NCBI GenBank assembly: GCA_964614115.1
Contig: CAZTKR010000001.1
Location: 10,614 to 74,613, forward strand
Direction of reading: 5' to 3'
Length of the DNA stretch: 64,000 nucleotides
Source of the DNA: an uncultured bacterium
Lineage (GTDB): Bacteria; Zhuqueibacterota; QNDG01; DSAB01
Part shown: piece after piece, positions 1 to 52,980 of the stretch
How the letters are laid out: the number at the start of each line of letters is the position of its first letter
How positions within the stretch are numbered: the first letter of the stretch is position 1
The notes under the pieces: model-generated
What the model was told of the DNA's origin: nothing
Database searches by the model: none
The model's input: the letters and a program-made list of their open reading frames with translations, nothing else
Translations under genes and position numbers: made by a program

Positions 1-1
1 C

Positions 2-451
2 AAAATGGCGGCACTTAAGGAAAAATACAAGAAGGAACCGCAGAAGCTGAACGAAGAGACGATGAAGCTCTACAAGCAGCACGGCGTGAACCCCATGGGG
101 GGATGTCTGCCCATGCTTCTCCAGATGCCGGTCCTGTTTGCCCTGTTCAACCTTTTCCGTACGACCATCATGCTGAGGCAGGCCAGCTTTCTCGGCGGTT
201 TGATTCAAGACCTGTCTGCACCCGATCGTATGATCGCTGGTATTAACGTGCTTCCCATACTGATGGGTGCGACGATGATTATCCAGCAGAAGCTTTCCAC
301 GCAGAGCCCTCAACAGAAGATGATGGCGTATTTCATGCCGATTTTCTTCACATTCCTGTTCTACCAGTTTTCGGCAGGACTGAACCTCTACTACCTGATG
401 TTCAACATACTGACCATCGCTCAGGAGATCCTCATCAAGAAACATAAATAA
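2..451 (+). CDS. yidC: Membrane protein insertase YidC, C-terminal part (5' end outside the window)
   Basis: The translation ends in a typical YidC C-terminal region ([22 protein letters not shown]...[15 protein letters not shown]). The reading frame is open to the window edge. Synteny yidC-mnmE-mnmG-rsmG supports the call. Confidence 0.85.
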
Positions 452-497
452 ACATGTGAGTTGAATTCTATTCGATCCTTTCAAGAATGAGGATGAT

Positions 498-541
498 GGG
501 AACCCCGTCTTAGGAGCAGAGAAGGTGGGGTTCTTTTATTT
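498..541 (+). terminator. Putative rho-independent terminator after yidC
   Basis: Stem GGGAACCCC / GGGGTTC with a large loop, followed by the T-tract TTTTATTT directly downstream of the yidC stop. Confidence 0.35.
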
Positions 542-546
542 GAAAT

Positions 547-1923
547 ATGGAACATGATGATACCATCGTCGCTGTTTCGACGCCGACCGGCTCGGGCGGC
601 ATCAGCGTGATCCGTATCAGCGGAGCCGATGCGATTCCCCTGGTTCAGCGTGTGTTCCGGGGAGGCGACATACAGGGATCGCGGGGATACAGAGCCTATC
701 ATGGATGGATCGTGGACGATTCAGAGCCCATCGACGAGGTGGTTCTCACTGTTTTCCGTGCGCCCCATTCTTACACGGGTGAGGATGTGGTGGAGATAAG
801 CTGCCACGGGGGCGTTTTCCTGGGCCAGTGTATCGTCGAGCTTCTGGTTGCCCATGGCGTACGCCCCGCCCAGCCCGGTGAGTTTACCCAGAGGGCATTC
901 CTATCTGGAAGGATGGATCTTTGTCAGGCCGAGGCCGTTGCAGACCTCGTACAGGCAAGAACAGAGGCATCCAGGAAAGTGGCTGCCTATCAACTGGAAG
1001 GGCGCCTGTCCGAAAGACTGAAGAAGATGCGAGAGCAACTGGTCCAGGCGTGCTCCCTCCTGGAAATAGAGCTCGATTTCAGCGAAGAGGATGTGGCGTT
1101 CACGTCACGGACGGAATTGATGGCCATGCTGAATGCCATGAAAAAAGAGATTGAGTCCATCGTATCCAGCTTCGACAGGGGAAGGGTGTGTCGTGAAGGT
1201 ATACGCATGGTCATCGTGGGCCGGCCCAACGTGGGCAAATCCAGCGTATTGAACGGGCTCGTGGAGAGGGAGCGGGCCATCGTCACCGAAGTGCCGGGTA
1301 CGACGCGGGATACTGTGGAGGATGTGCTGGACATCGGAGGTTTGTTGTTCATTATTACGGACACGGCAGGAATCCGCGAATCAGAGGATATTGTGGAGAG
1401 AATCGGTGTTCAGAAGGCCAGGCAGGCCCTGAGCGCCGCAGACCTTGTCCTATTGATATTCGACGGCAGCGAAGCCCTGACGGACGAGGACGAAGCCGTC
1501 GTTCGTACGATAAAGGAAATGGGGAAGCGGGAGATCGGAGTCATCAACAAGGTCGACCTGCGGGTGAAAGCAGACACGAAACGCATAAAGGCGTGGTTGC
1601 CGGGAGCACCCCTGGTAAGGGTGTCCGCCCTGAAGCAGGAGGGTTTCCCGGGACTCATCCAGAAGATAGAAGAGATGGTCTTGGCCGATGGCATTCCCCA
1701 TGCGGGCGAGGTCGTGCTTACCCGCGTACGGCACAGGGACAGCCTGAGCAAAGCGAAAGCGGCCATCGAGCACGCCGAGGACTCTTTAAAGATGGGGATG
1801 TCCCAGGAATTCGTCGTGGTTGACCTTAGGGAGGCGCTGGATTCCCTGGGAGAAATCACGGGAGAGACCATCACAGACGATATCCTGAACCGTATTTTTT
1901 CGGAATTCTGCATCGGCAAGTAG
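547..1923 (+). CDS. mnmE: tRNA modification GTPase MnmE (TrmE)
   Basis: 458 aa. The N-terminal domain and the G-domain (GRPNVGKSS, DTAG) are present. The C-terminus ends in the CIGK motif characteristic of MnmE. Confidence 0.95.
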   Translation: MEHDDTIVAVSTPTGSGGISVIRISGADAIPLVQRVFRGGDIQGSRGYRAYHGWIVDDSEPIDEVVLTVFRAPHSYTGEDVVEISCHGGVFLGQCIVELLVAHGVRPAQPGEFTQRAFLSGRMDLCQAEAVADLVQARTEASRKVAAYQLEGRLSERLKKMREQLVQACSLLEIELDFSEEDVAFTSRTELMAMLNAMKKEIESIVSSFDRGRVCREGIRMVIVGRPNVGKSSVLNGLVERERAIVTEVPGTTRDTVEDVLDIGGLLFIITDTAGIRESEDIVERIGVQKARQALSAADLVLLIFDGSEALTDEDEAVVRTIKEMGKREIGVINKVDLRVKADTKRIKAWLPGAPLVRVSALKQEGFPGLIQKIEEMVLADGIPHAGEVVLTRVRHRDSLSKAKAAIEHAEDSLKMGMSQEFVVVDLREALDSLGEITGETITDDILNRIFSEFCIGK

Positions 1924-1939
1924 TGTTCCACGTGGAACA
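1924..1939. repeat. Perfect 16-bp palindrome TGTTCCACGTGGAACA, copy 1 (CACGTG core)
   Basis: Seen directly in the sequence, immediately after the mnmE stop codon. The 15-nt string TGTTCCACGTGGAAC recurs at 3851-3865. Confidence 0.7.
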
Positions 1940-1958
1940 TTTTGCGTGAGCAAAACCA

Positions 1959-3875
1959 GTGAAAAGCAAGACCGCATATGATGTCATCGTCGTCGGGGGA
2001 GGGCACGCCGGTTGTGAGGCCGCCCTGGCGGCATCGCGTATGGGCGCACGAACCCTCCTCATCACGATGAACATTCCGACCATCGCCCAGATGTCGTGCA
2101 ATCCGGCCATCGGCGGGCCGGCCAAGGGGCATCTGGTCCGGGAGATAGATGCCCTGGGGGGTGAGATGGGCGTGGCCATCGACAAGACGGGCATTCAGTT
2201 TCGGATGCTGAACATGTCCAAGGGGCCTGCCGTCTGGGCGCCCAGGGCTCAGGCAGACAGGCAGGAATACTCCACACAGATGCGGTGGGCCCTGGAGTCT
2301 CAAGAAAGGCTGACGATTTTTCAGGGAATGGTCACAGGTCTGGGTGTTCGGGGTGACAGCATCGACGGTGTGGAGACAGAGACGGGACGACGGATCAACA
2401 GCAGAACGGTGATCCTCACGTGTGGGACCTTCCTGAACGGGCTCACCCACATAGGGCTCAAGAGCTTCCCCGCGGGCAGGGCCGGCGAGTTCCCGGCCGT
2501 GGGCTTGACAGAGAGTCTGGTGTCCCTGGGATTCGAAGCGGGCCGGTTGAAGACGGGAACGCCGCCCAGGGTAGACGGCCGGAGCATCGATTTTACCCGG
2601 ATGGAAATCCAGCCGGGCGATGCACAACCGCGTCCCTTTTCCCACAGGACAGAAAAAATCGAAGTCGATCAAATTCCCGTCTACTTGACCTACACCCATC
2701 CGGGCACGCACACGATACTGGCTTCGGGCCTGGATCGTTCACCCCTATACACGGGTAAGATTGTCGGCGTGGGCCCTCGGTATTGTCCCTCCATCGAAGA
2801 CAAGATCGTCCGTTTCGAGGATAAAGAGCGTCATCAGATCTTCCTGGAACCGGAAGGCAGGCGGTCGCATGAGTACTACGTGAACGGATTTGCCACCAGC
2901 CTACCCGAGGAGGTTCAAATCGAAGCGCTGAGAACGATTCCTGGGATGGAGAAGGCCGAAATCACCCGTCTGGGGTATGCCATTGAGTACGATTTCTTCC
3001 CGCCTACCCAGCTGAGGCCGACCCTGGAGACCAAGCGTATCCATGGCCTCTTCCTGGCCGGACAGATCAACGGGACGTCGGGGTATGAAGAGGCGGCGGC
3101 TCAGGGGCTGGTAGCCGGGATCAACGCGGTTCTCATGATACGGGGCGAACAACCGTTTCTCCTGGACCGATCCGACGGGTACATGGGCGTGCTTATCGAC
3201 GACCTGGTGACCAAGGGCACGAACGAGCCCTACCGCCTCTTCACGTCCAGGGCCGAGTATCGGCTGCTGCTCCGCCAGGACAACGCCGATCGACGGCTGA
3301 TGAAACATGGCCATCGCCTGGGCCTGATCCCCGATGCGCTGTATGACCGGTTGCAGCGTAAAGAGGCGTTCATTCAGAAGGCACTGGAGGATGTCCGCCG
3401 CATCAAGCCTGATTTGGACATCGTCAACCCGATTCTTCGGGAGTTGGACACCTCACCCCTGGATACACGGCAGAGTCTGCACCAGCTCCTCAAGCGTCCC
3501 CAGGTCGGACTGGAAAATCTGAGTCCGATTTCCGAGGTTGAGAATCTGATGGAGGCGTGGGGTGATTTGCGTAAAGACGTGATGGAGCAGGTCGAGATCG
3601 AGATCAAGTACGAGGGATACTTCCAGCGGCAGAAGGAAAGGATTCAACGGTTCAAGCGATTGGAGGAGAAGCGCATCCCGGAGACGTTGGATTTTCGGGC
3701 AGTCACGACCCTGTCAAAGGAGGCCAGGGAAAAGCTCAGCCAGATCCGGCCCGTCTCCTTGGGGCAGGCGGCCCGCATATCGGGCGTATCGCCGGCGGAC
3801 ATTTCTGTCCTGACGTTGATTCTGGATAAAACAACCAAAGAGCGCAGGCATGTTCCACGTGGAACTCATCGGTGA
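1959..3875 (+). CDS. mnmG: tRNA uridine 5-carboxymethylaminomethyl modification enzyme MnmG (GidA)
   Basis: 638 aa. FAD-binding N-terminus YDVIVVGGGHAGCEAA. Full-length GidA architecture. GTG start. Confidence 0.95.
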   Translation: MKSKTAYDVIVVGGGHAGCEAALAASRMGARTLLITMNIPTIAQMSCNPAIGGPAKGHLVREIDALGGEMGVAIDKTGIQFRMLNMSKGPAVWAPRAQADRQEYSTQMRWALESQERLTIFQGMVTGLGVRGDSIDGVETETGRRINSRTVILTCGTFLNGLTHIGLKSFPAGRAGEFPAVGLTESLVSLGFEAGRLKTGTPPRVDGRSIDFTRMEIQPGDAQPRPFSHRTEKIEVDQIPVYLTYTHPGTHTILASGLDRSPLYTGKIVGVGPRYCPSIEDKIVRFEDKERHQIFLEPEGRRSHEYYVNGFATSLPEEVQIEALRTIPGMEKAEITRLGYAIEYDFFPPTQLRPTLETKRIHGLFLAGQINGTSGYEEAAAQGLVAGINAVLMIRGEQPFLLDRSDGYMGVLIDDLVTKGTNEPYRLFTSRAEYRLLLRQDNADRRLMKHGHRLGLIPDALYDRLQRKEAFIQKALEDVRRIKPDLDIVNPILRELDTSPLDTRQSLHQLLKRPQVGLENLSPISEVENLMEAWGDLRKDVMEQVEIEIKYEGYFQRQKERIQRFKRLEEKRIPETLDFRAVTTLSKEAREKLSQIRPVSLGQAARISGVSPADISVLTLILDKTTKERRHVPRGTHR

Positions 3876-4512
3876 GTTGCTGGAAAGGGAAGGCATACGT
3901 CCGCCCTTTCCCGTCGTTCCTCTTTTTCGCCGGTATTGGGAGATGCTTCTCGACTGGAATCAGAGAATCAACCTGGTATCCAAAAACGATGAAAGACGGC
4001 TTGTGACCCGGCATTTCCTCGAGTCCCTGGGCCTCATCAAGGTCGTGCCGTTTCCTCCGGACGCCCGGGTGATGGACTTGGGATCTGGCGCAGGATTCCC
4101 GGGCATTCCTCTGAAGATTGTGCGGCCCGATCTTCGTATGGTTCTGGTGGAATCCAAGCGCAAGAAGATTCTTTTTCTCCGGCACGCGATCAATACCCTG
4201 GGCCTGGAAAACATGGAGGCCGTGCTGGGAAGAGTGGAGCAGTTGGCAGAAACGCTGGGACGGTTCGATTTTGTCGTCAGTCGGTCGGTGGCGAGCCTGG
4301 TGAAGTTGGCAAGGTGGAGCAGGGCGTACTTGGAGAAGAGCGGCGGGCAGCTCGTCGTGATCAAGGGTCCCGGCGCTCAGGAGGAATTGGTTGGATTAAA
4401 GGCCAAAGCGTCTGCCCTGGGAATCAAGGACGTGCACGTCGTCGCATACAATCCTTTCCCGGAATGGCTCGATCTGAAAAAAAGTGTGGTGGTAACCGTT
4501 CGATGGGGATAA
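3850..4512 (+). CDS. rsmG: 16S rRNA (guanine527-N7)-methyltransferase RsmG (GidB)
   Basis: 220 aa. SAM-binding motif DLGSGAGFPGIPL. The N-terminal region aligns with E. coli RsmG. It overlaps the mnmG 3' end by 26 nt in another frame. Confidence 0.9.
   Translation: MFHVELIGELLEREGIRPPFPVVPLFRRYWEMLLDWNQRINLVSKNDERRLVTRHFLESLGLIKVVPFPPDARVMDLGSGAGFPGIPLKIVRPDLRMVLVESKRKKILFLRHAINTLGLENMEAVLGRVEQLAETLGRFDFVVSRSVASLVKLARWSRAYLEKSGGQLVVIKGPGAQEELVGLKAKASALGIKDVHVVAYNPFPEWLDLKKSVVVTVRWG
3851..3865. repeat. Palindrome TGTTCCACGTGGAAC, copy 2 (14-bp perfect core GTTCCACGTGGAAC)
   Basis: The same 15-mer as at 1924-1938. It overlaps the rsmG start codon and the last codons of mnmG. Confidence 0.7.
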
Positions 4513-4594
4513 TAGGAATCCTCAGACATGCGTATCTAATGTGTAACGGTCAGCGCTGTCGACCAGCATTCAAGATATTGTAATTAAACGGGAT

Positions 4595-7846
<3,252 letters not shown>

Positions 7847-7890
7847 TGTATATTTTTTAGATGTTGTCCTATTCTTCTATTGGAGGGAGT

Positions 7891-9603
7891 ATGAAATATC
7901 GTTGCCTGATGCGGGTTTTTTTCCTCGTTCTTCTCGCCGGCTGTGGGAAGAAGGACCCCATCGTAGCCGTCATCGGCAATAAGCAGGTGATCACTTTAAA
8001 CGAGTTCAAGGAGGATTTTTCCCGAGGCAAGAGCACGGAAGCGGTGGAAACCTCCTCGCCCTCGAGATTGCTGAATCATCTGAATCATATGATCGACACA
8101 CGGATAAAAATCCTGGAAGCCTATGAGATGGGGCTGGAGCGCGACTCTGCCGTCGTTGCAAAGGTCGTCCCGACACGCACACAGGCGCTGTTCAACAGGC
8201 TCTATGAGACCGAGATCGTCGATCACATGGTGAAAGAAACGGATATACGGGCGTATTTTGCTCATATGGGCAAGGAGGTCGTGATCCGTAAGATCACGTT
8301 TCGTTGCGAAGCCGATTCGTCCTCGGAGGAAGAGGCAAAGAGGAAGGCTCAAGACGTTTTAAGTCAAGCCCGAGCCGGAGAGGATTTTGCAGCACTGGCC
8401 AGGACGCATTCCGAGGATAGGGGATCGGCCATGAACGGGGGCTTGATGAATCCTCTGGTATGGACGCAACAGAACGATCCCGTGAAGGATAGGGCGTTTA
8501 CGATGCAGGAAGGTGATATCTCTGGACTCATCAAGGACAACACAGGATATCACATCATCAAGGTCGAGAAGATACGGGAGAAAGAGCGTGATCCTTATCA
8601 CGAGGTTCGTGAGGAGATTCGTCAGAACCTGATTGCAGCAAATCGGCAGGCCATTGCCGAAGAAGCCAGAGCATACTGGTCAAAAGTAATGGAAGATAAA
8701 GGAGTGTTTTGGAATGAGGAGGAGTTGGAGTACCTTGTGCAGAGACTAAAGTCGGTAAAGGACCCGAGAAGGGATATCCTCGCAGACAGCTTGGATGGGC
8801 TGAGTCCCGAGGAAAAAGAGAAAGTTCTGGTACAGCACAAGGAGGGACAGATTACAGTTCAGGATTTTGAAGAGAAAATCCAGGAATATCCACAGCATAC
8901 GCGGTTTCCCATTGATCAGACGAGTGGTCTCAAACGTCTTTTTGAGCAATGGTTGATGAGAAGAATGTTGCTGGAAAAGGCCGTCAGTAAAGGTCTGGAA
9001 AAAGACAAAGCCGTCGTCGAAGAACTGCAAAAGACCACGGAGCAGGAAATCGTTCGTGTTCTGATGGACCGCTTTGTCATCGGGGAGATAAAACCCAGGG
9101 AAGAAGCGCTGAAGCTCTATTATGAAAGAAACAGAGAGGAAAAATACTCTGATCCCGAGAAAGTGAATGTTCAGGAAGTCATGGTTAAGGACGAGGACAT
9201 GGCCAACCGGATTGCTCAATGGGCCAAAGCGGGAAGAGATTTTAGCAAGCTGGCCCGGGATTATACGGAAAGACCGGGGTATAAGAACAAGGACGGCATT
9301 CTGGGTTTTTTCGCTCAGGGACGATGGGGTGACATGGGTGAGAAGGCATTCACCCTTAAGCCCGGCGAGGTAGCCGGACCCATCCCTTTGAAGAACGACC
9401 GTGGATTTTCCGTGATCAAGCTGCTAGAGCAAAGGCCATCCCAGGTGAAACCCTATGATGAAGTGAAAAGCCGGGTTCGGAATGATTTGATCAGAGAGAT
9501 TAAAAAGGATCGGGAAGAACAGTGGTTGGAAGAAAAGAGAAACAAATACAGTGTGAAGACATATGAAAACGTTTTACGAAAAGCGATACCCAGAGCATCG
9601 TAA
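7891..9603 (+). CDS. Periplasmic parvulin-type peptidyl-prolyl isomerase and chaperone, SurA/PpiD family (lipoprotein)
   Basis: Lipoprotein signal MKYRCLMRVFFLVLLAGC. Parvulin domain GYHIIKVEK plus chaperone-like flanking regions. RBS GGAGGG 5 nt before the ATG at 7891. The ORF track begins at 7861 with an N-terminal extension. Confidence 0.75.
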   Translation: MKYRCLMRVFFLVLLAGCGKKDPIVAVIGNKQVITLNEFKEDFSRGKSTEAVETSSPSRLLNHLNHMIDTRIKILEAYEMGLERDSAVVAKVVPTRTQALFNRLYETEIVDHMVKETDIRAYFAHMGKEVVIRKITFRCEADSSSEEEAKRKAQDVLSQARAGEDFAALARTHSEDRGSAMNGGLMNPLVWTQQNDPVKDRAFTMQEGDISGLIKDNTGYHIIKVEKIREKERDPYHEVREEIRQNLIAANRQAIAEEARAYWSKVMEDKGVFWNEEELEYLVQRLKSVKDPRRDILADSLDGLSPEEKEKVLVQHKEGQITVQDFEEKIQEYPQHTRFPIDQTSGLKRLFEQWLMRRMLLEKAVSKGLEKDKAVVEELQKTTEQEIVRVLMDRFVIGEIKPREEALKLYYERNREEKYSDPEKVNVQEVMVKDEDMANRIAQWAKAGRDFSKLARDYTERPGYKNKDGILGFFAQGRWGDMGEKAFTLKPGEVAGPIPLKNDRGFSVIKLLEQRPSQVKPYDEVKSRVRNDLIREIKKDREEQWLEEKRNKYSVKTYENVLRKAIPRAS

Positions 9604-10495
9604 GTGTCGAGCCATCGGAAGAGGCGCTTCCATCGCTTCGATCTGTGTGATAATTCTCCTCCTGTTGAAATGTGGAGTCCGCGTGGATGACGACGAAGTC
9701 GTGGCCCGGGTCGGTAATGCTGTTTTAACGAAAGAGGATATGAAGCAACGGATGAACTGGGAGGGTGTAGGCCCAGACCAGGAAAGCGATTTCGTCGACC
9801 GGTGGGTTGATCGCGAACTCCTCTATCAAGAGGCCAAGAGATTGGGATTAGACAAGGCTGTGGAGCTTCAGTGGGAAATCGAGCTCGTGGAGAAAGAATA
9901 CGTGATCCAAAAGCTGCTGGAGAGGACATTCATCCAGGAGGTCGAGATCACGGAAGAGGAAATCGCCGACTATTACGAGAGACACAAGGATGAATTCCAG
10001 GTGGATGAAGAGGAGGTGCGGGCACTCCATATTTTGAAGGATACCAAAGCCGAGGCCGATATCGCACGTCAGGAAATCATAGCAGGTAAACCGTTTGAAA
10101 CTGTGGCCAGGGAATCCTCCGAGGGCATCTTCAGGGAGAGAGGAGGGGATATGGGTTTTTTCCGAAGGGGGGATGTCATACCGGAGATAGAGCGGTATGC
10201 TTTCCGTCTTTCCGAAGGGCGGGTATCACGGGTTTTTCAGAGCAATTATGGTTTTCATATCATCAAGGTCATAAAGAAGCGTGCCAGGGGAGACTATCGC
10301 GACTTATCGGAAGTCCGGGATGATATATTCCATCAACTCCGCGTGAATAAAGAACGTTCTGCCTACTATGATCTCCTGTTCCAACTGCAGAACAGGACTA
10401 AGGTGTCCGTCACGATCCCCAGGAGTCTGGAAGAGACGCAGGATACACTGACTGTGCAAACCGAAGAAAATGATTTAGAGGAGTCGGAAAAGTGA
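9563..10495 (+). CDS. Parvulin-type peptidyl-prolyl isomerase (PrsA/SurA-like)
   Basis: 310 aa. Single parvulin domain (NYGFHIIKVIKKRARGD) after a SurA-like N-terminal region. Hydrophobic N-terminus. It overlaps the previous gene's end by 41 nt, so the exact start is uncertain. Confidence 0.7.
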   Translation: MKTFYEKRYPEHRKCRAIGRGASIASICVIILLLLKCGVRVDDDEVVARVGNAVLTKEDMKQRMNWEGVGPDQESDFVDRWVDRELLYQEAKRLGLDKAVELQWEIELVEKEYVIQKLLERTFIQEVEITEEEIADYYERHKDEFQVDEEEVRALHILKDTKAEADIARQEIIAGKPFETVARESSEGIFRERGGDMGFFRRGDVIPEIERYAFRLSEGRVSRVFQSNYGFHIIKVIKKRARGDYRDLSEVRDDIFHQLRVNKERSAYYDLLFQLQNRTKVSVTIPRSLEETQDTLTVQTEENDLEESEK

Positions 10496-11787
10496 GGAAA
10501 CCATTTTTTATCGTCCTATGTGCTGGTTTAGCCCTCTTTTTTTCATGGGCGTCCCATGCCCAGGAAGTTCTGGAGGGAGTCGTTGCTGTCGTTGGGGATG
10601 AGATCATTCTTCGTACCCAACTCATCCAGGCGGCGCAGGGATTCGCCGTGCAGATGGGCGTCAATCCCAGGAACCAGCCCCAGGAGTTCGAAAAGATCAA
10701 GGACAACATTCTTCAGAATTTGATAAATGAGAAGGTTCTTCTGGCCAAGGCTATCGAGGATACGGTTACTGTGGATGATCAGCAGGTGGAGTCTGCCCTG
10801 GAGTCGCGGATTGAGGAGCTGACCCAGCAATTAGGCTCCAAGGAGCGCGTGGAGGCGTACTTTGGCTCACCCATCCGCAAGATCAAGAGAGATTACAGAG
10901 ATGAGATTCGTAAACAGCTCATCGTCAGCACGGTTCAGCAGGAGAAACTAAGGGACATCAAGGTGTCGCGGAGTGAAGTCATATCGTTCTATGAAACCAT
11001 GAAAGATAGCCTGCCCGATATGAAATCCAGAGTCAAGCTTCGTCACATTCTGATCGATGTGAGTCCAGGTGAGCGTGCAAAACAGCAAGCCATGGAGCGC
11101 ATGCGGGAGATTCAGGAACGTATCCGTCAGGGAGAGGATTTTGCGGAATTAGCCAAGTTGTACTCCGAAGACCCGGGAACCGCATCCAACGGAGGAGCCT
11201 TGGGCTTTGTGGAGAAGGGCACGTTGTTTCAGTCCTTCGAAGAAACGGCGTTTCAGATGGAACCCGGCGAGATTTCCGATGTAGTGGAGACACCGGTGGG
11301 ATTGCATCTCATACGGTTGATCGAGAAGCGAGGCGACAAGGCGAGCATGCGCCATATCCTGATTCGTGTCGAGGTGACCTCTGTGGATGAGAATGCCGTG
11401 CTGGACACCTTGAGACGTATTCGTGAAAGAGTGTTGGCCGGAGAATCGTTTGAAGACCTGGCCCAAAAATATTCCCAGGATGAGACAACAAAAGACGTGG
11501 GAGGCGACTTGGGATGGCTGCCGCCTGACCAACTCCAGATCGAGGCTTTTAAGAGTGCCATCGACACACTCCAGACAGATGAGATCACCCGTCCGTTTAA
11601 AACACAGTTTGGCTATCATATCGTAAAGCTGGAAGGAAGAAGAGGCGCGCGAGAAGTGTCTCTGGAAGAAGACTGGGAACAGGTGGAATACTGGGCACTG
11701 AGTACGAAGAGACAGAAAGTGATAGAAGAGTGGATTGCGGAATTAAGAAAGAAGATCTACATAAAAATCAATGAGGACATGTTGTAG
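10492..11787 (+). CDS. surA: Chaperone SurA (two parvulin domains)
   Basis: 431 aa. Signal peptide. SurA N-domain (VVAVVGDEIILRTQL). Two PPIase domains (GLHLIRLIEKR and GYHIVKLEGRR). GTG start preceded by GAGGAG. Confidence 0.8.
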   Translation: MRKPFFIVLCAGLALFFSWASHAQEVLEGVVAVVGDEIILRTQLIQAAQGFAVQMGVNPRNQPQEFEKIKDNILQNLINEKVLLAKAIEDTVTVDDQQVESALESRIEELTQQLGSKERVEAYFGSPIRKIKRDYRDEIRKQLIVSTVQQEKLRDIKVSRSEVISFYETMKDSLPDMKSRVKLRHILIDVSPGERAKQQAMERMREIQERIRQGEDFAELAKLYSEDPGTASNGGALGFVEKGTLFQSFEETAFQMEPGEISDVVETPVGLHLIRLIEKRGDKASMRHILIRVEVTSVDENAVLDTLRRIRERVLAGESFEDLAQKYSQDETTKDVGGDLGWLPPDQLQIEAFKSAIDTLQTDEITRPFKTQFGYHIVKLEGRRGAREVSLEEDWEQVEYWALSTKRQKVIEEWIAELRKKIYIKINEDML

Positions 11788-11903: not shown

Positions 11904-11937
11904 CCCTGTCGGGATCATCCTCCGACGGGGTTTATTT
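11904..11937. terminator. Putative bidirectional hairpin plus T/A tract between surA (+) and the convergent dehydrogenase (-)
   Basis: Stem CCCTGTCGG / CCGACGGGG (9 bp, one G-U pair) followed by TTTATTT. The - strand stop codon lies inside the T-tract. Confidence 0.4.
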
Positions 11938-12957
11938 GTGCGGCTCGATGATCACCTTGATCGATTCCTTGGCCTGGGCCACCAACTCGAAGCCCCTGCT
12001 CGCTTCGGCCAGGGGGAGCCGGTGCGTGATCATTTCTTCCACAGCGACGCGTTTGGATCGGATGAGATCGATGGCAACGGCACAATCCAAGGGTGCGGCG
12101 CCGTACGAGGTGAGCATGGTGATCTGGTTTCGCCAGAAGTCGTTGACGGGAATCGAAAAATCCACGCCCGGGTCTGTGGGGGCGAAGAACTGGACGGTTC
12201 CGCCGCGATCCACGGACTGCATGGCCTGGGTGAAGGCCGGTGTGGCGCCGGTGCATATGATGACTAGGTCGGCCAGCAGGCCGTCGTTGGCACGACGGAC
12301 ATGCTCGGGAACGGCATCCCGTGCATCGATGACCGTATCAGCACCGAACCGGCGGGCGGCCTCGAGGCGGTAATTCTGCACATCGGTGGCCATGATGTGT
12401 CCGGCGCCCAGGGCTCTGGCCAGGGCGATATGGAGAAGCCCGGATATGCCGCTGCCCAGAATAAGGACGGTTTGACCGGGCTTGAGGCGTGCCAGCCGTT
12501 GTCCCCGGACCACACAGCCGAGGGGTTCGATGAACGTGCCCTCGTCGTAGCTCATCCCAGGAGGAAGTACGAATACGCCCCGATCCACGTTAATTTTCGG
12601 GACACGCAGGTATTCGGCGAATCCGCCGGGGTCGAAATTCGTGGTATGCAGCGTCTCGCAGACCGTGTGCTGTCCGTTCAGGCAATAACGGCACGTGTTG
12701 CAGGGCACATGGTGAGAAATAAAGACTCTGTCTCCCACGTTGAATCGGTCCACATTTTCACCGACTTGGGCGATGTCGCCCGCGATCTCATGGCCCAGGA
12801 CCAGCGGTGCCTTCTTGAGCCGGTACCATTCCATCACGTCGCTCCCGCAGAGGCCGCTGGCCAACACTTTTACCAGCATTTCATCGGGCCCGATTTTCGG
12901 CACATCCATTTCTTCCACCCGCACATCGCGGTTGTTGTAATACATGGCTACACGCAT
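11932..12957 (-). CDS. Zn-dependent alcohol/polyol dehydrogenase, MDR family (threonine/sorbitol dehydrogenase-like)
   Basis: Catalytic Zn ligands GLCGSDV...GHE, structural Zn Cys cluster CNTCRYC, and Rossmann motif GSGISG. I place the start at ATG 12957 (MRVAMYY), preceded by AGGAG. The track ORF extends further to 13056. Confidence 0.85.
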   Translation of the reverse strand: MRVAMYYNNRDVRVEEMDVPKIGPDEMLVKVLASGLCGSDVMEWYRLKKAPLVLGHEIAGDIAQVGENVDRFNVGDRVFISHHVPCNTCRYCLNGQHTVCETLHTTNFDPGGFAEYLRVPKINVDRGVFVLPPGMSYDEGTFIEPLGCVVRGQRLARLKPGQTVLILGSGISGLLHIALARALGAGHIMATDVQNYRLEAARRFGADTVIDARDAVPEHVRRANDGLLADLVIICTGATPAFTQAMQSVDRGGTVQFFAPTDPGVDFSIPVNDFWRNQITMLTSYGAAPLDCAVAIDLIRSKRVAVEEMITHRLPLAEASRGFELVAQAKESIKVIIEPHK

Positions 12958-13042
12958 CAAACACTCCTGTTCATAGGGTCCCCATCGTCCTCGAGATGAA
13001 AAAGACAGCGGTGAGAAATCCGTCCCGAGTCCGGGATGGTGT

Positions 13043-13837
13043 TTAGGCCCCTTCATCCTTCACGGTGTTGAATATCTCATCGGCTTCCTTCACGTCGGCA
13101 TTCTCGTGTATGATGGCCTGCAGAGCTCGGGCCATGGCCACAGGATGTGGGCTCTGCCACACGTTCCGGCCCAGATTAATCCCGATGGCGCCCCGTTCCA
13201 TGCCGTCGTGGACGAATTCGAAGACCTCCCGGGCGGTCTCACACTTGGGGCCACCGGCCATGACGACGGGAACCGGGCAGCCTTCGACAACCTTTTCGAA
13301 GTCTTCGCACCAGTATGTTTTGACCACACGGGCCCCCAGTTCGGCTGCGATACGGCAGAACAGACCCAAGGTTCGGGCCTCCCGCTTCTCCAGCTCGCGT
13401 CCGACGGCGGTGACGGCCATCACGGGAATACCCGTGTCCTCGCATTCGTTGACAACACTGGCCAAGTTCATCAGTGTTTGATGTTCGTACTCGGTGCCGA
13501 TGAAGACCGAGACGCCCACGGCAGCCGCGTTCAACCGGACGACTTCTTGTATGGATGTGGTAATGCCTTCGTTGGCCAGGTCTTTACTGACCACGCTGGT
13601 GCCTCCGGATATCCGCAGGATGATGGGCAGGCTGTCTGTTGCATCCACACACGCACGCAGGACGCCCCGGGTGACGAAGAGCGCATCGCAGTACGGCAGG
13701 AGCGGCTTGATGGTTTCGCCCGGTTTTTCCAGTTTGTGGGTGGGACCCTGAAAATAGCCGTGGTCTATGGGTAAAAAGAAACAGTGACCGTCGGGTTGGA
13801 TGAGTCGGGATAATCGGTTTTTTATTCCCCAGTCCAT
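13043..13837 (-). CDS. Class I aldolase of the DeoC/FbaB (DhnA-type) family
   Basis: 264 aa. FLPIDHG N-terminal motif. TIM-barrel aldolase features typical of archaeal-type class I FBP aldolase or 2-amino-3,7-dideoxy-D-threo-hept-6-ulosonate synthase. AGGAGG RBS. Confidence 0.8.
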   Translation of the reverse strand: MDWGIKNRLSRLIQPDGHCFFLPIDHGYFQGPTHKLEKPGETIKPLLPYCDALFVTRGVLRACVDATDSLPIILRISGGTSVVSKDLANEGITTSIQEVVRLNAAAVGVSVFIGTEYEHQTLMNLASVVNECEDTGIPVMAVTAVGRELEKREARTLGLFCRIAAELGARVVKTYWCEDFEKVVEGCPVPVVMAGGPKCETAREVFEFVHDGMERGAIGINLGRNVWQSPHPVAMARALQAIIHENADVKEADEIFNTVKDEGA

Positions 13838-13988
13838 ATAGATCGCCTCCTGTCATGCCTAATGATGATGTTCCAACGAGGGTCTATTTTACGAAAAAAG
13901 CACACGATTGTCAAGCCGACATTCGGTGAATAAAAATCCCTGTCCAGGTCGGTTAAGCCAGGGCTTGCGTGTTTTATCGTGACGAGAA

Positions 13989-15215
13989 TCAGCGGCTGGA
14001 TTTTAACTTCAGACTCCGCGTCAGTCTCTGGAATGCTTTCCGGTAAGAATCGGGATTCTTCCAATCCGTGAAATCTCCGACAACACGCGTCTGGCAGATT
14101 TCCGAAGCCCACTCTTCGTCGGATGCCATCACGGCCTCATCCAGACGAATGGGGAACAGGATCCTCTGTTTTCGTCCTTCCTCCTGCCTTAACGCTGTCT
14201 CGACTTCGCGCTTCACCCACGATCTGTGAATCATGCTCTTGGAGAGCACCAACACGAGTTTGTCATAGCCATGTTTGGACTTATGGCTGGACCCTGTCAT
14301 GTCGCCACCCGTTTTCATATCCTCCGGACAAAGCCAGCAGCGAATGCCCTTTTCCTGCAAATCACCGTGAATTTTCTGGGCAAGCACATCGTCTTCATGG
14401 GAATAGCCGATAAAACAGGTGTAGTACGGTATGGGCTTGTCCGAGGGCTTTGATGGCAGGACCTTGATTATCCTGTCTGGAAGGCCGACGCCTCTCAGAA
14501 AAGAGATCGGCAATCTGCCGGATCGGCACAGTGTGTCGTGATCGATGATGCTGGGCCCGTGATGGATGCAGGACGCCAGGTTTTTCACGCGGCTCAAATC
14601 GGTGAATCCGAAGACGGTCTTATACAGGCGCACCTGTTTGAAATTGGTGTTGTGCAGAAGTGATTCTGTCAGATCGGCCCCACGGAGATTGGCTCTGCTG
14701 AAATCGGTCTTGCTCAGATCGGCTCCGTAGAGATCGGCTTCGGTAATATCGGACTCGCAGAGGTCGGCTCCTTTGAGCGTGGCTTTACAGAGGATGGCGG
14801 AACGGAGACGGGTCCCGCTCAGGTTGGCTTGGTCCAGGACTGCGCCGCTGAGATCGGCTTCGATAAGGTTGGCTCCGCCCAGGTCGGCCTCGCTAAGGTC
14901 GGCATTGCGGAGATTGGCCAGGCTAATGTAAGCACCACTTAGGTAAGCCCCGTTCATAACGGCACCACTGAGACAGGCTCCGCTGAGATAGGTACCGTTG
15001 AGGTCGGCTCTGCTGAGATCGGCCTCCCGGAGGTCGGCACCGCTGAGATCGGCCTCGCTGAGATTGGCTTCGCTGAGGTCGGCCTTGACGAGCTCGGCCA
15101 TACGGAGATTGGCCAGATTGAGATCGGCCTTCTTACCCTCACTTCCGCCAGACATTACCCATTGCTTATGTTTTTCAAGGATTTTTTCAAGCTGTGGTGT
15201 TGTGGATTTTTTCAT
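13989..15215 (-). CDS. Pentapeptide-repeat protein fused to a C-terminal TIR domain
   Basis: 408 aa. Residues ~25-215 form about 35 consecutive pentapeptide repeats (ADLSE/ANLSE/ADLRE...). Residues ~265-400 show TIR hallmarks: YTCFIGYSHEDD (beta-A/alpha-A), GIRCWL, KTGGD (BB-loop), LVLVLSKSMIHRSWVKREVETAL (conserved Glu). No recognisable Shine-Dalgarno sequence. AT-rich non-coding DNA follows. Confidence 0.85.
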   Translation of the reverse strand: MKKSTTPQLEKILEKHKQWVMSGGSEGKKADLNLANLRMAELVKADLSEANLSEADLSGADLREADLSRADLNGTYLSGACLSGAVMNGAYLSGAYISLANLRNADLSEADLGGANLIEADLSGAVLDQANLSGTRLRSAILCKATLKGADLCESDITEADLYGADLSKTDFSRANLRGADLTESLLHNTNFKQVRLYKTVFGFTDLSRVKNLASCIHHGPSIIDHDTLCRSGRLPISFLRGVGLPDRIIKVLPSKPSDKPIPYYTCFIGYSHEDDVLAQKIHGDLQEKGIRCWLCPEDMKTGGDMTGSSHKSKHGYDKLVLVLSKSMIHRSWVKREVETALRQEEGRKQRILFPIRLDEAVMASDEEWASEICQTRVVGDFTDWKNPDSYRKAFQRLTRSLKLKSSR

Positions 15216-15693
15216 GTCAGGCTTCAGAAATTATTAAAAAGGAATATTTTTAGCGACGTCGCGCTTTGCCTAGACAAAGCATTCCAAAGCTGTAACCCTC
15301 TCCCTGGTGCACAGAAATCCGCATTTTGTCTATTACTAAAAAGAAGGATATCAGAATACAACATAAAAAATTTACAATAAAAAGCAAGGACTAATGAGTG
15401 GATTGCTGCCTCGACGATCAGTGGGTTTTCCATTTGATCTTTTGGGAAAGATTCTTATATTACGCGTGCGATGCAAAAACCGACGGACTTAGAGTAATCC
15501 TCTGACGGATGGAAATTACAGTCCAGCCCCCAGGACGGGCCTTGACCTATGCGCATCAGCGGCATCGTCTTCTGCTCTATCTTCCAAGAATCACTCCCGA
15601 ACAGGTGTTTGTCCCGTCCTTTTACTAGGATGACACGATGAAAATATACGTACTCTCCCCGAGCTTTGGAATCGAGAAATAAGGAATATCAGG

Positions 15694-18126
15694 ATGCCTA
15701 TTCGCAAGCTCTTCCTCTTCGCTCTCCTGTTTTTTTGTGTCTTCTCGAATACCCGTGGCCAAGAAGCAGAGATGAGCGAACTGTCGGACCTTACCGTTGA
15801 AAAGATCATGCGGGATCCCCGGTGGATGGGTGTATCGCCCAGTGAAATCACCTGGTCGGAAGACGGGCAACGCATTTACTTCAACTGGAATCCCGAAAAA
15901 GCCGAGAGTGACTCCTTATACGTGGTGTCCAGAAATGGCGGTACACCCCGTAAGGTGAGTTTGGCCGAGAGGAGAGTGCTCCCTGCCAGTCAGGGCGATT
16001 ATGACCGGTCCTGGTCCCGAAAAGTGTATGAGAAGGACGGCGACATTTTCCTCCTGGACATCAAGCGATGGAGGATCAGGCAGATCACCCGCACGGTCGA
16101 GGTGGAACGAAATCCCCGTTTTACCGCCGACGGGAAAAAGGTCACGTATATCAAAGACCGGAATTTATATCTCTGGCATATCGATAACGGAGAGATCGTT
16201 CAGCTCACCGATTTCCGTGACGGTTTTCAGAAATCCGAGAAAGAAGAGCCAAAGATCGACCAGGAGAAATGGCTGAAAAAAGAAGAAGCAGAGCTTGTCG
16301 GGTATTTAAAAAAGCAAGCAGATCTGAAAAAGTTATCCGAAAAAAACAAGAAAGCCGTGTTGCCCGAGAGACCGAAGAAGATCTTCGTCGAGGATAAAGT
16401 AGTGCAGGATGTGCAGTTGAGCCCCGGCGAGCGCTTCATCACCTTCGTCCTAAATAAACCGGCCAGGCAGGCCAAGCGGACGATGGTCCCCAATTATATC
16501 CATGAGACGGGATTCACAGAGGTCCTTGATGCCCGTACCAAGGTGGGAAGCACCCAGAGTACGTACCAGCTGGGCGTGTACGATATAAAGGAAGATACTG
16601 TCCTGTTCGTTTGCACAGAAGACATTCCGGGAATCTACGATCGGCCTGCGTATCTGGAAACGTATGATGAAGCGGGCTCAGAGGAGGACGCGCAAGAGAA
16701 ATCCCAAGAGACGGAAAAATCCGAACAGAAAAGTGCCAGGGAGGTGATGTTTCCCGACCTGGTCTGGGCAGAGGACGAAGACTGTGCCGTCGTTTCTGTG
16801 ATGGCTCAGGATCACAAGGATCGATGGATCATGCTCCTGGAGCCGGATTCGGCCAGGCTGAGGCTCCTGGATCGCCAGCATGATGACGCCTGGATCGGCG
16901 GACCGGGCATACGGCGTTGGCGGCGGCAGGGGCCCGTCCTCGGCTGGATGCCCGACGGCAGGCGGGTTTGGTTCCAGTCGGAAGCATCAGGCACCTCCCA
17001 TCTCTACACCGTCGATATCCAGACGGGTGAGAAAACGGCCCTGACCAGCGGCCCTTTCGAGGTTTATACGCCCCGAATCTCTCGGGATAAAAAACAATGG
17101 ACATTCACGTCCAACGAGGCGCATCCCGGCGAGCGGCATTTTTACCGCATGCCCATCGATGGCGGAAAGGCTGTCCAGACAACCCGGATGGAGGGTTCGA
17201 ATCAGGTTTTTCCATCACCCGACGGGAAGATGCTGGCCGTCTGTCATTCGGTCAGCAACCGGCCTTGGGAGCTGTTCATCATGGAGAACAAGACCGGCGC
17301 TCCAGCGAAACGCATAACCCATTCCCTGAGCCCGGAGTTCCTGTCGTATCCATGGCGCCAGCCCGACGTGATCACGTTTCCGGCCCGCGATGGAGCACGC
17401 GTCCATGCGCGTCTGTACCGTCCAGCGAATCCAGAGCCGGGGGGCCCGGCCGTGATCTTTGTTCACGGTGCGGGATACCTTCAGAACGCCCACAAGTGGT
17501 GGAGCCACTACTTTCGGGAATACATGTTCCACAACCTTCTAGTCGATCATGGCTACACAGTATTGGATATCGACTACCGGGCCAGCGCCGGCTACGGCCG
17601 GGACTGGCGAACGGCCATTTACCGGCACATGGGGGGGAAAGACCTGACGGATCAGGTCGATGGCGCCCGGTTCCTGGTCGAAGCATGCCACGTGGACCCG
17701 AAACGAATCGGCATATACGGCGGGTCGTACGGCGGGTTTATCACCCTGATGGCCCTGTTTACCGAACCTGATGTGTTTGCGGCGGGTGCGGCACTTCGAC
17801 CCGTGACAGACTGGGCGCATTACAATCACTGGTACACGTCCAACATCCTGAACGTGCCCTACGCCGACAGCTTGGCCTACGTGCGGAGCTCGCCCATCTA
17901 CCATGCCGAGGGGCTGAAGGGCGCCCTTTTGATGTGCCACGGCATGGTGGATGTGAATGTTCATTTTCAGGATGTCGTCCGGTTGTCCCAGCGGCTCATC
18001 GAACTGGGAAAGGAGAACTGGGAACTGGCCGTTTATCCGGTGGAGGGACATGGGTTCCGGGAGCCCAGCAGCTGGACCGATGAGTATAGACGCATCTTCA
18101 CGTTGTTCGAGGAGAACCTGAAATAA
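15694..18126 (+). CDS. S9 family serine peptidase (prolyl oligopeptidase/dipeptidyl peptidase-like) with N-terminal TolB-like beta-propeller
   Basis: 810 aa. Signal peptide. Propeller repeats. C-terminal alpha/beta-hydrolase domain with nucleophile motif GGSYGGF and Asp/His downstream. A Lys/Glu-rich linker is present. Confidence 0.9.
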   Translation: MPIRKLFLFALLFFCVFSNTRGQEAEMSELSDLTVEKIMRDPRWMGVSPSEITWSEDGQRIYFNWNPEKAESDSLYVVSRNGGTPRKVSLAERRVLPASQGDYDRSWSRKVYEKDGDIFLLDIKRWRIRQITRTVEVERNPRFTADGKKVTYIKDRNLYLWHIDNGEIVQLTDFRDGFQKSEKEEPKIDQEKWLKKEEAELVGYLKKQADLKKLSEKNKKAVLPERPKKIFVEDKVVQDVQLSPGERFITFVLNKPARQAKRTMVPNYIHETGFTEVLDARTKVGSTQSTYQLGVYDIKEDTVLFVCTEDIPGIYDRPAYLETYDEAGSEEDAQEKSQETEKSEQKSAREVMFPDLVWAEDEDCAVVSVMAQDHKDRWIMLLEPDSARLRLLDRQHDDAWIGGPGIRRWRRQGPVLGWMPDGRRVWFQSEASGTSHLYTVDIQTGEKTALTSGPFEVYTPRISRDKKQWTFTSNEAHPGERHFYRMPIDGGKAVQTTRMEGSNQVFPSPDGKMLAVCHSVSNRPWELFIMENKTGAPAKRITHSLSPEFLSYPWRQPDVITFPARDGARVHARLYRPANPEPGGPAVIFVHGAGYLQNAHKWWSHYFREYMFHNLLVDHGYTVLDIDYRASAGYGRDWRTAIYRHMGGKDLTDQVDGARFLVEACHVDPKRIGIYGGSYGGFITLMALFTEPDVFAAGAALRPVTDWAHYNHWYTSNILNVPYADSLAYVRSSPIYHAEGLKGALLMCHGMVDVNVHFQDVVRLSQRLIELGKENWELAVYPVEGHGFREPSSWTDEYRRIFTLFEENLK

Positions 18127-52877: not shown

Positions 52878-52980
52878 TTTCTGGGCGTCATTGTTTTTAG
52901 GCTTTAAATTTATTAAAATAAATGTTACATTCGTGTGATACTGGTTTTCATTACGGTTTTGGCTGGATATTACAAGCATG

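Follow-up and report, generated by a model that had tools for sequence, protein, structure and literature searches.

A pentapeptide-repeat/TIR fusion gene of an uncultured Zhuqueibacterota bacterium: an old single-gene cassette and its candidate role in immunity

The activity of bacterial enzymatic TIR (toll/interleukin-1 receptor) domains depends on their self-association, and in SARM1, AbTir, TIR-STING, TIR-SAVED and SPARTA it is the clustering of TIR domains which completes the active site. The segment formed by the BB-loop and helix alpha-B takes part in the TIR-TIR contacts. The present study deals with a gene in which a TIR domain is fused to a beta-helix made of pentapeptide repeats (in the following PRP module). 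It is located on the minus strand at 13989 to 15215 of a 64,000-nucleotide stretch of DNA from an uncultured bacterium of the Zhuqueibacterota (positions 10,614 to 74,613 of contig CAZTKR010000001.1, assembly GCA_964614115.1), which is referred to as the window throughout. Start and end of this open reading frame (ORF) of 408 amino acids are exactly those given by an earlier interpretation made from the letters alone (the sequence-only reading). The gene is an old single-gene cassette and, on balance, though not by much, we consider it probable that its family is a self-contained immune sensor-effector of the abortive-infection type, which is the best explanation at hand.

In surveys of the Aravind lab, pentapeptide repeats have been listed among the superstructure-forming modules of conflict systems (PMC7159879, PMC8195603, PMC10853773). 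A precedent for their presence in a tested anti-phage effector, likened here by its description, is HalA of the Hailong system, in which they are combined with an IRK potassium-channel domain (PMC13586616). The domain joined to the repeats of HalA is, however, a channel and not a TIR domain and, unlike the window protein, HalA belongs to a two-gene system which includes a nucleotidyltransferase. Stand-alone and effector TIR NADases (AbTir/BtTir, ThsB, TIR-STING, TIR-SAVED and the TIR-APAZ protein of SPARTA) have the same TIR fold as the window protein (TM-score about 0.6-0.7) and the same W-x3-E motif. Yet, at 15-24% identity none of them is specifically close, and the N-terminal module of the window protein is a PRP module followed by a linker of its own. 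As to Thoeris, the window protein misses the Pfam model ThsB_TIR (13.5 vs a cut-off of 21.2 bits) and matches no PADLOC ThsB model at E<=1; the window contains no adjacent ThsA (SIR2/SLOG or Macro/TM), nor do 78 family loci reveal a recurrent partner. With respect to CBASS and Pycsar, the PADLOC SAVED_TIR match covers the TIR domain only (profile positions 8-100 of 404), no cyclase is present in the window and the protein has no STING or SAVED domain. Similarly, the Foldseek match to TIR-APAZ of SPARTA extends over about 145 columns, i.e. the TIR domain only, and neither Argonaute nor APAZ is encoded in the window. With the TIR-NLR/STAND proteins (Avs/bNACHT-type) the family shares a logic which comprises superstructure-forming repeats joined to a constant TIR domain, arrays of paralogues and the swapping of effectors. 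In contrast to these, the window protein, with its 408 residues, lacks an NTPase domain according to Pfam, NCBIfam and PADLOC scans; the PADLOC TIR-NLR model is matched weakly, over the TIR domain, by 18 of the 42 family members analysed. The PADLOC family PDC-S66 is matched by the window protein over profile positions 146-240 of 282, which correspond to its TIR part (E=7.9e-8), and not over its full length.

Architecture of the protein and its relation to known folds

The gene and the parts of its product are as follows:
13989..15215, minus strand: coding sequence of the PRP-linker-TIR protein, 408 amino acids (ORF; Pfam; full-length AlphaFold2 model with a mean predicted local distance difference test score, pLDDT, of 87.4; purifying selection against the orthologue at locus L001, p=2e-8)
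15144..15215, minus strand: N-terminal cap, residues 1-24, with a helix at 7-21 (AlphaFold2 secondary structure)
14580..15143, minus strand: right-handed pentapeptide-repeat beta-helix, residues 25-212, about 37 repeats (Pfam, AlphaFold2, Foldseek, repeat register)
14430..14579, minus strand: conserved helical linker, residues 213-262, HxGPSxID...FLRGxGLPD (family alignment, AlphaFold2, family hidden Markov model, HMM)
13992..14429, minus strand: TIR domain, residues 263-408 (Pfam TIR_2 and TIR, Foldseek)
14205..14207, minus strand: codon GAA for Glu337, the catalytic-position glutamate of TIR NADases (alignment of W333-x3-E337)

The full-length AlphaFold2 model, calculated from an alignment of 42 sequences, shows the N-cap helix (7-21) followed by the beta-helix (about 25-215), three short linker helices (226-252) and the TIR fold (263-405). 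Cap, PRP module, linker and TIR domain together fill all 408 residues of the model, while Pfam sees only the PRP and TIR domains. Leu9 and Trp19 of the cap are near-invariant across the family, which supports the assignment of the start codon. The N-terminus is a hydrophilic helix which, judged by eye, contains no hydrophobic stretch resembling a signal peptide. The protein, which is predicted to be cytoplasmic, consists of three parts, namely a rigid beta-helix, a family-specific helical linker and a C-terminal TIR domain. Family-specific HMMs built without the window clade match it with 184 bits (TIR), 75 bits (linker) and 184 bits (PRP). All 16 invariant columns of the family are kept, deviations occurring at S270G and in alpha-B.

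Within the PRP module the Pfam profile PF00805 scores 165 bits against a cut-off of 20.2 (E=1.9e-49). Residues 25-212 form about 37 uninterrupted repeats in an A(D/N)Lxx register, which bears out the roughly 35 repeats at residues ~25-215 noticed from the sequence alone, and the beta-helix is modelled with a pLDDT above 95. A Foldseek search with the full-length model yields Np275/276 (2j8k) as the best PRP match (TM-score 0.88, root mean square deviation 1.9 Å, 40% identity), HetL (3du1) also being among the best. These proteins have the same beta-helix as the window protein but neither a TIR domain nor the conserved linker. QnrB1, MfpA and AlbG, which belong to the same class of right-handed quadrilateral beta-helices, are much weaker matches with identities of 12-24%. 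HetL is also the top match within NCBIfam, albeit below its cut-off (131 vs 260 bits), while neither penta_rpt_Qnr (60.3 vs 240 bits) nor mfpA (41.2 vs 360 bits) is reached and none of the Qnr subfamilies attains 56 bits, their cut-offs being 425-500. The net charge of the module, calculated from the sequence, is -8 over 188 residues. Across the family this charge spans -11.5 to +2.2 per 100 residues and, hence, an acidic DNA-like surface is probably not conserved. The label of a Qnr/MfpA-type DNA mimic, which the sequence-only reading had attached to the beta-helix, is therefore not supported, the nearest folds being Np275/276 and HetL. The trigger derived from it, a DNA-mimicking bait for a DNA-binding protein or a poisoned topoisomerase, finds no support in the failing Qnr and MfpA models and the inconsistent charge, and is further weakened by the PRP module being the more conserved half of the protein between orthologues.

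The DNA encoding the repeats displays a periodicity of 15, 30 and 45 nt, which in the region 14566-15237 of the window gives rise to long spurious ORFs on both strands (e.g. 14998-15237 on the plus and 14954-15142 on the minus strand). Some ORFs of this kind score against pentapeptide HMMs; they occur in many family loci as well and represent an annotation trap.

The C-terminal part is recognised by TIR_2 (PF13676) with 66.4 bits against a cut-off of 28 (E=4.2e-18; residues 268-398 on profile positions 2-121 of 122) and also passes PF01582 TIR (27.2 vs 21.3 bits). Its secondary structure elements in the AlphaFold2 model follow the flavodoxin-like alternating order betaA-alphaA-betaB-BB loop-betaC-alphaC-betaD-alphaD-betaE-alphaE. 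The motifs FIGYSHED (268-275), KTGGD (301-305) and REVETAL (336-342) are present, and pairwise HMMER alignments superimpose W333-x3-E337 on the W-x3-E of AbTir (7uwg/8g83), BtTir (7uxr) and TIR-STING (6wt6). Glu337 is kept in 41 of the 42 family members; Trp333 and Ser325 are retained in the window protein, too. Thus, the three motifs named by the sequence-only reading are all there, the HMM checks it had proposed (PF13676, PF00805) turned out positive, structure prediction gave both a beta-helix and a TIR fold, and the catalytic glutamate, on which together with the TIR HMM match its proposal had been made to depend, is found on alignment.

As the beta-helix dominated the Foldseek results of the full-length model, linker and TIR domain were additionally modelled apart (pLDDT 83). 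This model yields 36 PDB matches at E<=1e-3, and those listed, which include SPARTA TIR-APAZ, TLR15, MyD88, Roq1, AbTir, SARM1, TcpB/BtpA and TIR-STING, are TIR domains or TIR-containing proteins; with TM-scores of about 0.6-0.7 and identities of 15-24%, no single match is prominent. The same search reveals no counterpart of the linker among solved structures. Within the family alignment Leu213, Phe239 and Gly244 of the linker are invariant and Gly220, Pro221, Ser222, Arg241 and Pro246 nearly so. Across the family the linker is as conserved as the TIR domain, and the family HMM finds it in all family loci. By analogy to the C-terminal dimerisation helices of Qnr and MfpA it is a candidate dimerisation hub.

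The PRP-linker-TIR family and its genomic settings

In a homologue search over 5.8 billion proteins the fusion is shared by 119 of the 120 top homologues. Counted as clusters at 50% identity from the linker+TIR half, the family amounts to 8,849 representatives at E<=1e-3, 4,097 at E<=1e-10 and at least 1,045 at E<=1e-30, this half being almost always C-terminal, behind a variable N-terminal region. Species-representative genomes contain at least 582 loci with the fusion, the best match to the window protein showing 50% identity. The family is hosted by free-living bacteria (sediment, soil and phototrophic ones) which belong to many phyla, among them Acidobacteriota, Chloroflexota, Chlorobiota, Cyanobacteria, Alpha- and Gammaproteobacteria, Calditrichia, Nitrospirales, Verrucomicrobiota, Ignavibacteriota and SAR324. 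The family is very large and phylogenetically patchy. Its hallmarks are the N-cap, a PRP module of variable length (cap and PRP before the linker measure 140-310 residues, mostly in steps of five), the linker HxGPSxID...FLRGxGLPD and a TIR domain with CFISYS, RCW, SxWxxxE and FPIRLD.

Database names of its members are automatic, such as “toll/interleukin-1 receptor domain-containing protein” at NCBI (e.g. NTW82583.1, from a metagenome-assembled genome of the Chlorobiaceae) or “uncharacterized protein YjbI with pentapeptide repeats” at JGI. Relatives of the NTW82583.1 type have the same full-length architecture (39-50% identity over about 76-99% of the query) but differ from the window clade in beta-A, BB-loop and alpha-B of the TIR domain. 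Full-text literature searches retrieved no paper describing a PRP-TIR fusion, and PADLOC models extend over no more than the TIR domain of the window protein and of the 42 members, the best match being that to the TIR part of PDC-S66 (E=2.4e-18). The sequence-only reading was right in that neither the literature searched nor a PADLOC family describes this architecture, which is nevertheless common, as the above numbers of clusters, loci and homologues make clear. Accordingly worded, the fusion is unstudied rather than unseen, and we read the window protein as a putative TIR immune effector whose sensor module is unstudied, placed within a large existing family.

The 554 neighbours recorded at 78 family loci (four genes on each side) do not include a recurrent partner, as nothing but paralogues is found in more than four loci. 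These paralogous PRP/TIR proteins, the only recurrent neighbours, are present at 18 of the 78 loci, and operon-like tandems of two to five of them occur in Bryobacterales, Chlorobiaceae, Anaerolineae, Ktedonobacteraceae and others. Within such arrays the linker+TIR parts are on average 62% and up to 92% identical, while the PRP modules reach a mean of 39% (unrelated pairs 41%; background about 40-57%); in 31 of 32 pairs the linker+TIR part is kept and the PRP module diverged. Some array members carry a non-PRP N-terminus. Such a pattern agrees with an effector which stays constant and a recognition module, joined to it, which diversifies. In two triplets, at L004 10001-13860 (identical to L011, Bryobacterales) and L005 10001-13504, two PRP-TIR genes are followed by a gene for a PRP protein of 428-463 residues whose C-terminal half is unassigned; L006 10001-14305 (Chlorobiaceae) consists of three PRP-TIR genes.

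Phage-tail genes (Phage_tail_L, Phage-tail_3, tailspike) surround the L004 triplet, and another array adjoins Abi_alpha and insertion sequence (IS) elements. In protein P0092 the same N-terminal PRP module is fused to an Mrr-type nuclease (Mrr_cat). Three genes away from a PRP-TIR gene, Leptolyngbya sp. Heron Island J encodes a caspase-nSTAND1-PRP protein of 969 residues (L063 6076-8985, minus strand) with the PRP module in the sensor position. The 268 nearest neighbours (two genes on each side) comprise strong matches to DISARM DrmA and DrmD (two each), BREX BrxL, PglZ and BrxH, Type I and Type IIG restriction-modification (RM) systems, a UG13a reverse transcriptase (DRT), PIN toxins and integrases. 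None of the defence systems is encountered among 116 neighbours from 35 aldolase loci, which were processed alike as a housekeeping control and contain only generic look-alikes (DinG, dCTPase).

Six IMG/VR contigs carry the fusion. On plasmid pSR-5 of Skermanella rosea (NZ_CP086116.1; L181 3850-7606) a PRP-TIR gene is split by two IS256 transposase genes; its halves are annotated as “pentapeptide repeat-containing protein” and “TIR domain-containing protein” and adjoin a recombinase and an AlpA-family regulator. In cultured phages (H1-H15 and 468 further phage records) PRP-only proteins are found, none with a TIR domain. These PRP-only proteins, from Mycobacterium, Rheinheimera (vB_RspM_barba, H1-H15), Staphylococcus and Listeria phages, are up to 51% identical to the repeats. 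A solitary relative, P0043 (L008 8036-12996; 50% identical over 82% of the query), is flanked by genes for M19 and M24 peptidases; the window encodes M19 and M24 peptidases elsewhere, which is possibly a coincidence.

The insertion, its age and its surroundings

The cassette and the signals within and beside it are as follows:
13921..15432, minus strand: inserted single-gene cassette of 1,512 nt, made up of a 68-nt 3' tail, the ORF and a 217-nt upstream region (empty site in L178)
15216..15432, minus strand: AT-rich upstream region of the cassette itself, 38.7% GC, presumed promoter and 5' untranslated region (5'UTR), without Shine-Dalgarno sequence
13929..13963, minus strand: weak hairpin (5-bp stem, 13938-13963) and T-tract (13929-13937) past the stop codon
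13886..13914, minus strand: native promoter of the downstream aldolase-alcohol dehydrogenase (ADH) operon, TTGACA-17-TAAAAT, outside the cassette (11 of 12 consensus positions; homologous to the L178 spacer)
15434..15461, plus strand: native promoter-like site of the S9 peptidase gene, TTGATC-16-TATATT, outside the cassette (scan; 90% identical to nt 87-116 of the L178 spacer)

Locus L178 was found via a search with the S9 peptidase, and its S9 peptidase, aldolase and ADH are 72%, 89% and 78% identical to those of the window. It is laid out as ADH (minus strand), aldolase (minus strand), a spacer of 319 nt which contains no gene, and S9 peptidase (plus strand). Nucleotides 28-75 of the spacer match window positions 13873-13920, i.e. 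the aldolase promoter, and nucleotides 87-116 match 15433-15462, which hold the site upstream of the peptidase. Homology stops at 13920 and restarts at 15433; since the matched segments are separated by 11 nt in L178 and by 1,512 nt in the window, the cassette (51.9% GC) corresponds to 13921-15432. No other aldolase locus contains the gene, from which, by parsimony, an insertion in the window rather than a deletion in L178 follows. None of 80 metagenomic loci with an aldolase of 74-84% identity carries a PRP-TIR gene; the aldolase-ADH pair is kept in them and wider synteny is lost. The junctions show no convincing target-site duplication or terminal inverted repeat. As judged from this comparison, the gene entered as a single-gene cassette between the divergent promoters of the aldolase and S9-peptidase genes. 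The empty site vindicates the inserted cassette assumed by the sequence-only reading, although its borders are 13921-15432 instead of 13838-15693 and the insertion is old.

What does not survive is the low-GC islet. The gene has a GC content of 54.4% (window 54.5%) and 64% GC at third codon positions (GC3 0.64; range of the 24 other window genes 0.58-0.73), and its codon-usage distance ranks 10th of 25 genes; a compositional island is thus rejected. The 478-nt spacer upstream of the gene (15216-15693; 43.1% GC) had been taken for the only strongly AT-rich DNA of the window. However, 29398-29875 is lower over the same length (40.6%), 131 nt at 52878-53008 have 32.8% and several short spacers 33-36%. 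Moreover, positions 15433-15693 of this spacer are the native promoter and leader of the S9 peptidase gene and not part of the cassette.

On the minus strand of 15216-15432 a promoter scan called no sigma-70 consensus. Neither AGGAGG nor any other Shine-Dalgarno sequence precedes the ATG of the PRP-TIR gene whereas the DeoC-type aldolase gene has AGGAGG, just as had been pointed out before. Past the stop codon the 5-bp stem is followed by AUUUUUAUU. Stem and tract exist as described by the sequence-only reading and the hairpin sequence is conserved in L001; yet, the minimum free energy of -9.7 kcal/mol is no better than that of shuffled sequences (z=0.28) and a terminator scan made no call, so that an intrinsic terminator is rejected. 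An ORF of 69 codons within the spacer (15224-15433) was rejected as a gene, too, since it is interrupted by a stop at codon 45 in L001 and L003. In a scan of 13700-15900 Rfam gave only a chance snoRNA-like match (E=0.25) and none for 15343-15462; hence, the spacers contain no known RNA. Over its roughly 120 nt the latter block hardly differs between the window and L001, compared to about 85-90% identity in the rest of the spacer and differences of about 20-25% at synonymous sites. It spans the right junction of the cassette (90 nt, 15343-15432, belong to the cassette) and the promoter-like site of the S9 peptidase, and may hold back-to-back promoters or a shared operator. If this promoter-like site is real, the peptidase leader is long, with about 230 nt in the window (15462-15693) and about 200 nt in L178 (5859-6061). 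Its length is kept while its sequence detectably is not, which suggests 5'UTR regulation of the peptidase-amidohydrolase operon.

An orthologue of 86% identity (P0002) is present with full synteny in three contigs of a sister lineage, and the ORF is intact in three lineages (84-100% identity). Its synonymous divergence (dS) from L001 is 0.22, compared to 0.17-0.40 for ten neighbours; together with the synteny this indicates that the gene was already present when the two lineages split. The insertion accordingly predates a split of dS about 0.2-0.3, the gene having since been inherited vertically under purifying selection, and composition gives no sign of a recent transfer. The ratio of nonsynonymous to synonymous divergence (dN/dS) against the L001 orthologue is 0.32 (binomial p=2e-8; TIR domain alone p=0.005), which is a weaker constraint than that on the neighbours (0.08-0.17). 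Split by part, it amounts to 0.20 for the PRP module, 0.41 for the TIR domain and 0.47 for the linker. On this evidence the window copy is functional in the evolutionary sense, as an old, solitary and somewhat divergent member of the family.

At the start of the window (1-11787) yidC-mnmE-mnmG-rsmG-mfd and, after them, three PPIase/SurA genes form a block which is conserved in relatives (L169-L171, MnmG 74-78% identical) where it extends leftward to rpmH-rnpA. In these relatives the conserved core ends at surA and the flank is too short to reach the insertion site. Nearly all window genes lie on the plus strand, cumulative GC skew rises steadily, and before about 61.6 kb no sizeable minus-strand block exists other than the ADH-aldolase-PRP-TIR group (11932-15215). 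Named proteins closest to the MnmG of the window stem from candidate division KSB1 (65-70% identity), which makes a KSB1-like host probable. We take the yidC to mfd cluster to be an origin-proximal core region, so that the window probably starts next to the replication origin. The setting is thus core housekeeping and not a defence island. No secretion system is located near the gene in the window and, as the sequence-only reading had noticed, no ThsA-like partner exists; among the window proteins there is no ThsA, SLOG, SIR2, Macro, cyclase, Argonaute or APAZ. The ORF of the Zn-dependent ADH (11932-13056, minus strand, 374 residues) overlaps the aldolase gene; its real start is probably the ATG at 12957 since the orthologues in L178 and L001 measure 337-341 residues.

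Proposed mechanism, rival explanations and significance

In the mechanism which we propose for the family, the beta-helix would be the variable recognition or assembly module and the linker+TIR part the constant effector. An invader-derived, probably oligomeric or multivalent protein would engage the beta-helix, or the helices would stack, whereupon the TIR domains would cluster. Clustering would complete the active site, NAD+ would be consumed and the infected cell would stop. The immune interpretation is based on the lack of a conserved partner, the arrays with constant TIR domain, the variable PRP length, module swaps, some defence neighbours and the occasional presence of the fusion on prophage or viral contigs and on a plasmid. 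Antiphage activity was found for 37.5% of 32 tested E. coli TIR systems (PMC11350192). With respect to the family as a whole we infer the immune function from sequence features at chances which are about even.

A number of observations weigh against this interpretation. The trigger and the mode of oligomerisation are pure inference. None of the 45 window proteins is a genuine defence or mobile gene product, PADLOC matches being generic (helicase, desulfurase). A recognisable defence system stands beside only about 8-10 of the 78 family loci, a number which is an estimate because the PADLOC and Pfam bulk scans give counts of families and not of proteins, and the difference from the control is marginal (9 of 78 vs 0 of 35; Fisher p about 0.055). 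Many neighbours are plain metabolic genes. The enrichment near defence genes for which the sequence-only reading had asked is therefore visible as DISARM, BREX and RM near some homologues, but modest. Further objections arise from the TIR domain itself. Its BB-loop/alpha-B segment (300-315) is divergent in sequence and modelled with a pLDDT of about 32. The window clade has FIGYS for FISYS and KTGGD for KIGDK of the family consensus, and SSHKSKHGY replaces the RIDEAIRLY helix of alpha-B. The closest relative outside the clade, P0004 (404 residues, 50% identical, from a JGI contig of 3.2 kb), shares the degenerate alpha-B and has a serine at the position of the catalytic glutamate (WIQNSVATIL). 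Between orthologues the TIR domain is less constrained than the PRP module (Fisher p=0.04), the supposed sensor thus being the more conserved part. As the TIR domain of the clade departs from the consensus and evolves faster than the PRP module, NADase competence of the window copy becomes less certain. Of the residue set of NAD+-cleaving TIR domains claimed for it from the sequence, the glutamate is kept, while FIGYS, BB-loop and alpha-B are atypical. The TIR domain of the window copy may work differently from the family norm, with altered activity, and the branch comprising P0004 and the window clade may be losing or changing TIR catalysis.

As a first rival explanation, the protein may be non-immune or decaying, i.e. 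domesticated or drifting in this lineage, with the TIR domain as an interaction module or on its way to inactivity and the helix as a scaffold. This explanation, which we regard as unlikely although it has the most in its favour among the alternatives, is in keeping with the housekeeping context and the retention of the gene in place in two lineages, the degenerate alpha-B/BB-loop and the S270G change, the elevated dN/dS of TIR domain and linker compared to the neighbours, the loss of the glutamate in the nearest outgroup and the 62.5% of tested TIR proteins without antiphage activity (PMC11350192). It has to be reconciled, however, with an ORF which is intact in three lineages, with significant purifying selection on the TIR domain alone and with the retention of Glu337, Trp333, Ser325 and the invariant family positions. 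Nor is there any functional link to the aldolase operon, which has its own promoter and in 80 other loci never carries the gene. Alternatively, the TIR domain might generate a signal in trans, a messenger of the cyclic ADP-ribose isomer type as made by Thoeris ThsB, for an effector encoded elsewhere in the genome. The catalytic glutamate would permit this, 37 of the 42 family members match PADLOC ThsB models weakly, and ThsB_TIR appears in the precomputed Pfam domain lists of many homologues. The window protein itself nevertheless stays below the ThsB_TIR cut-off, the window offers no ThsA, SLOG, SIR2 or Macro protein, and the 78 loci no recurrent non-paralogous neighbour. In addition, the cassette moved as one gene, by which a two-component system would be broken; signal generation in trans is hence improbable.

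Two further explanations take one half of the protein as their starting point. If the beta-helix mimicked DNA in the manner of Qnr, MfpA and AlbG, it would guard gyrase from a toxin with the TIR domain as an accessory. The fold is indeed that of pentapeptide-repeat proteins, QnrB1, MfpA and AlbG are among the weaker Foldseek matches, and the module is negatively charged. But the identities of 12-24%, the better match to Np275/276 and HetL, the NCBIfam scores far below their cut-offs and a net charge which varies widely within the family speak against topoisomerase protection, which moreover leaves the invariant linker+TIR part unexplained; we consider it very improbable. Still harder to believe is a secreted effector aimed at eukaryotic hosts, as exemplified by TcpB/BtpA for TIR domains and PipB2 for pentapeptide repeats. 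TcpB/BtpA is contained in the Foldseek TIR matches and NCBIfam reports partial matches to PipB2 and PipB, which, however, concern the repeats only and are far below the cut-off (106 vs 354 bits). The hydrophilic N-terminal helix without signal-peptide-like stretch, the free-living hosts and the lack of a nearby secretion system are at variance with secretion.

For the window locus itself, our analysis corrects the annotation to an old single-gene insertion with mapped junctions instead of a compositional island. Pentapeptide-repeat proteins are abundant and few of them have a known function; TIR enzymes play a central role in the immunity of bacteria, plants and animals. With its more than 1,000 clusters, a family which moves as one gene, diversifies its repeats and keeps its TIR domain is a cheap and well-defined experimental target that requires one gene and one point mutant. 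From it one could learn what the beta-helical repeats recognise and how TIR domains are switched on in the absence of an NTPase, a nucleotide signal and an Argonaute. Going beyond the sensor-effector reading favoured here, one may speculate, with little confidence so far, that PRP-linker-TIR proteins are widespread NTPase-less single-chain immune receptors in which the DNA-sized helix would act as recognition surface or bait and the linker as an oligomerisation hub licensing the TIR NADase, the arrays being the analogue of NLR clusters. If true, TIR immunity would gain a new type of sensor, and a first function could be assigned to one of the largest groups among the pentapeptide-repeat proteins.

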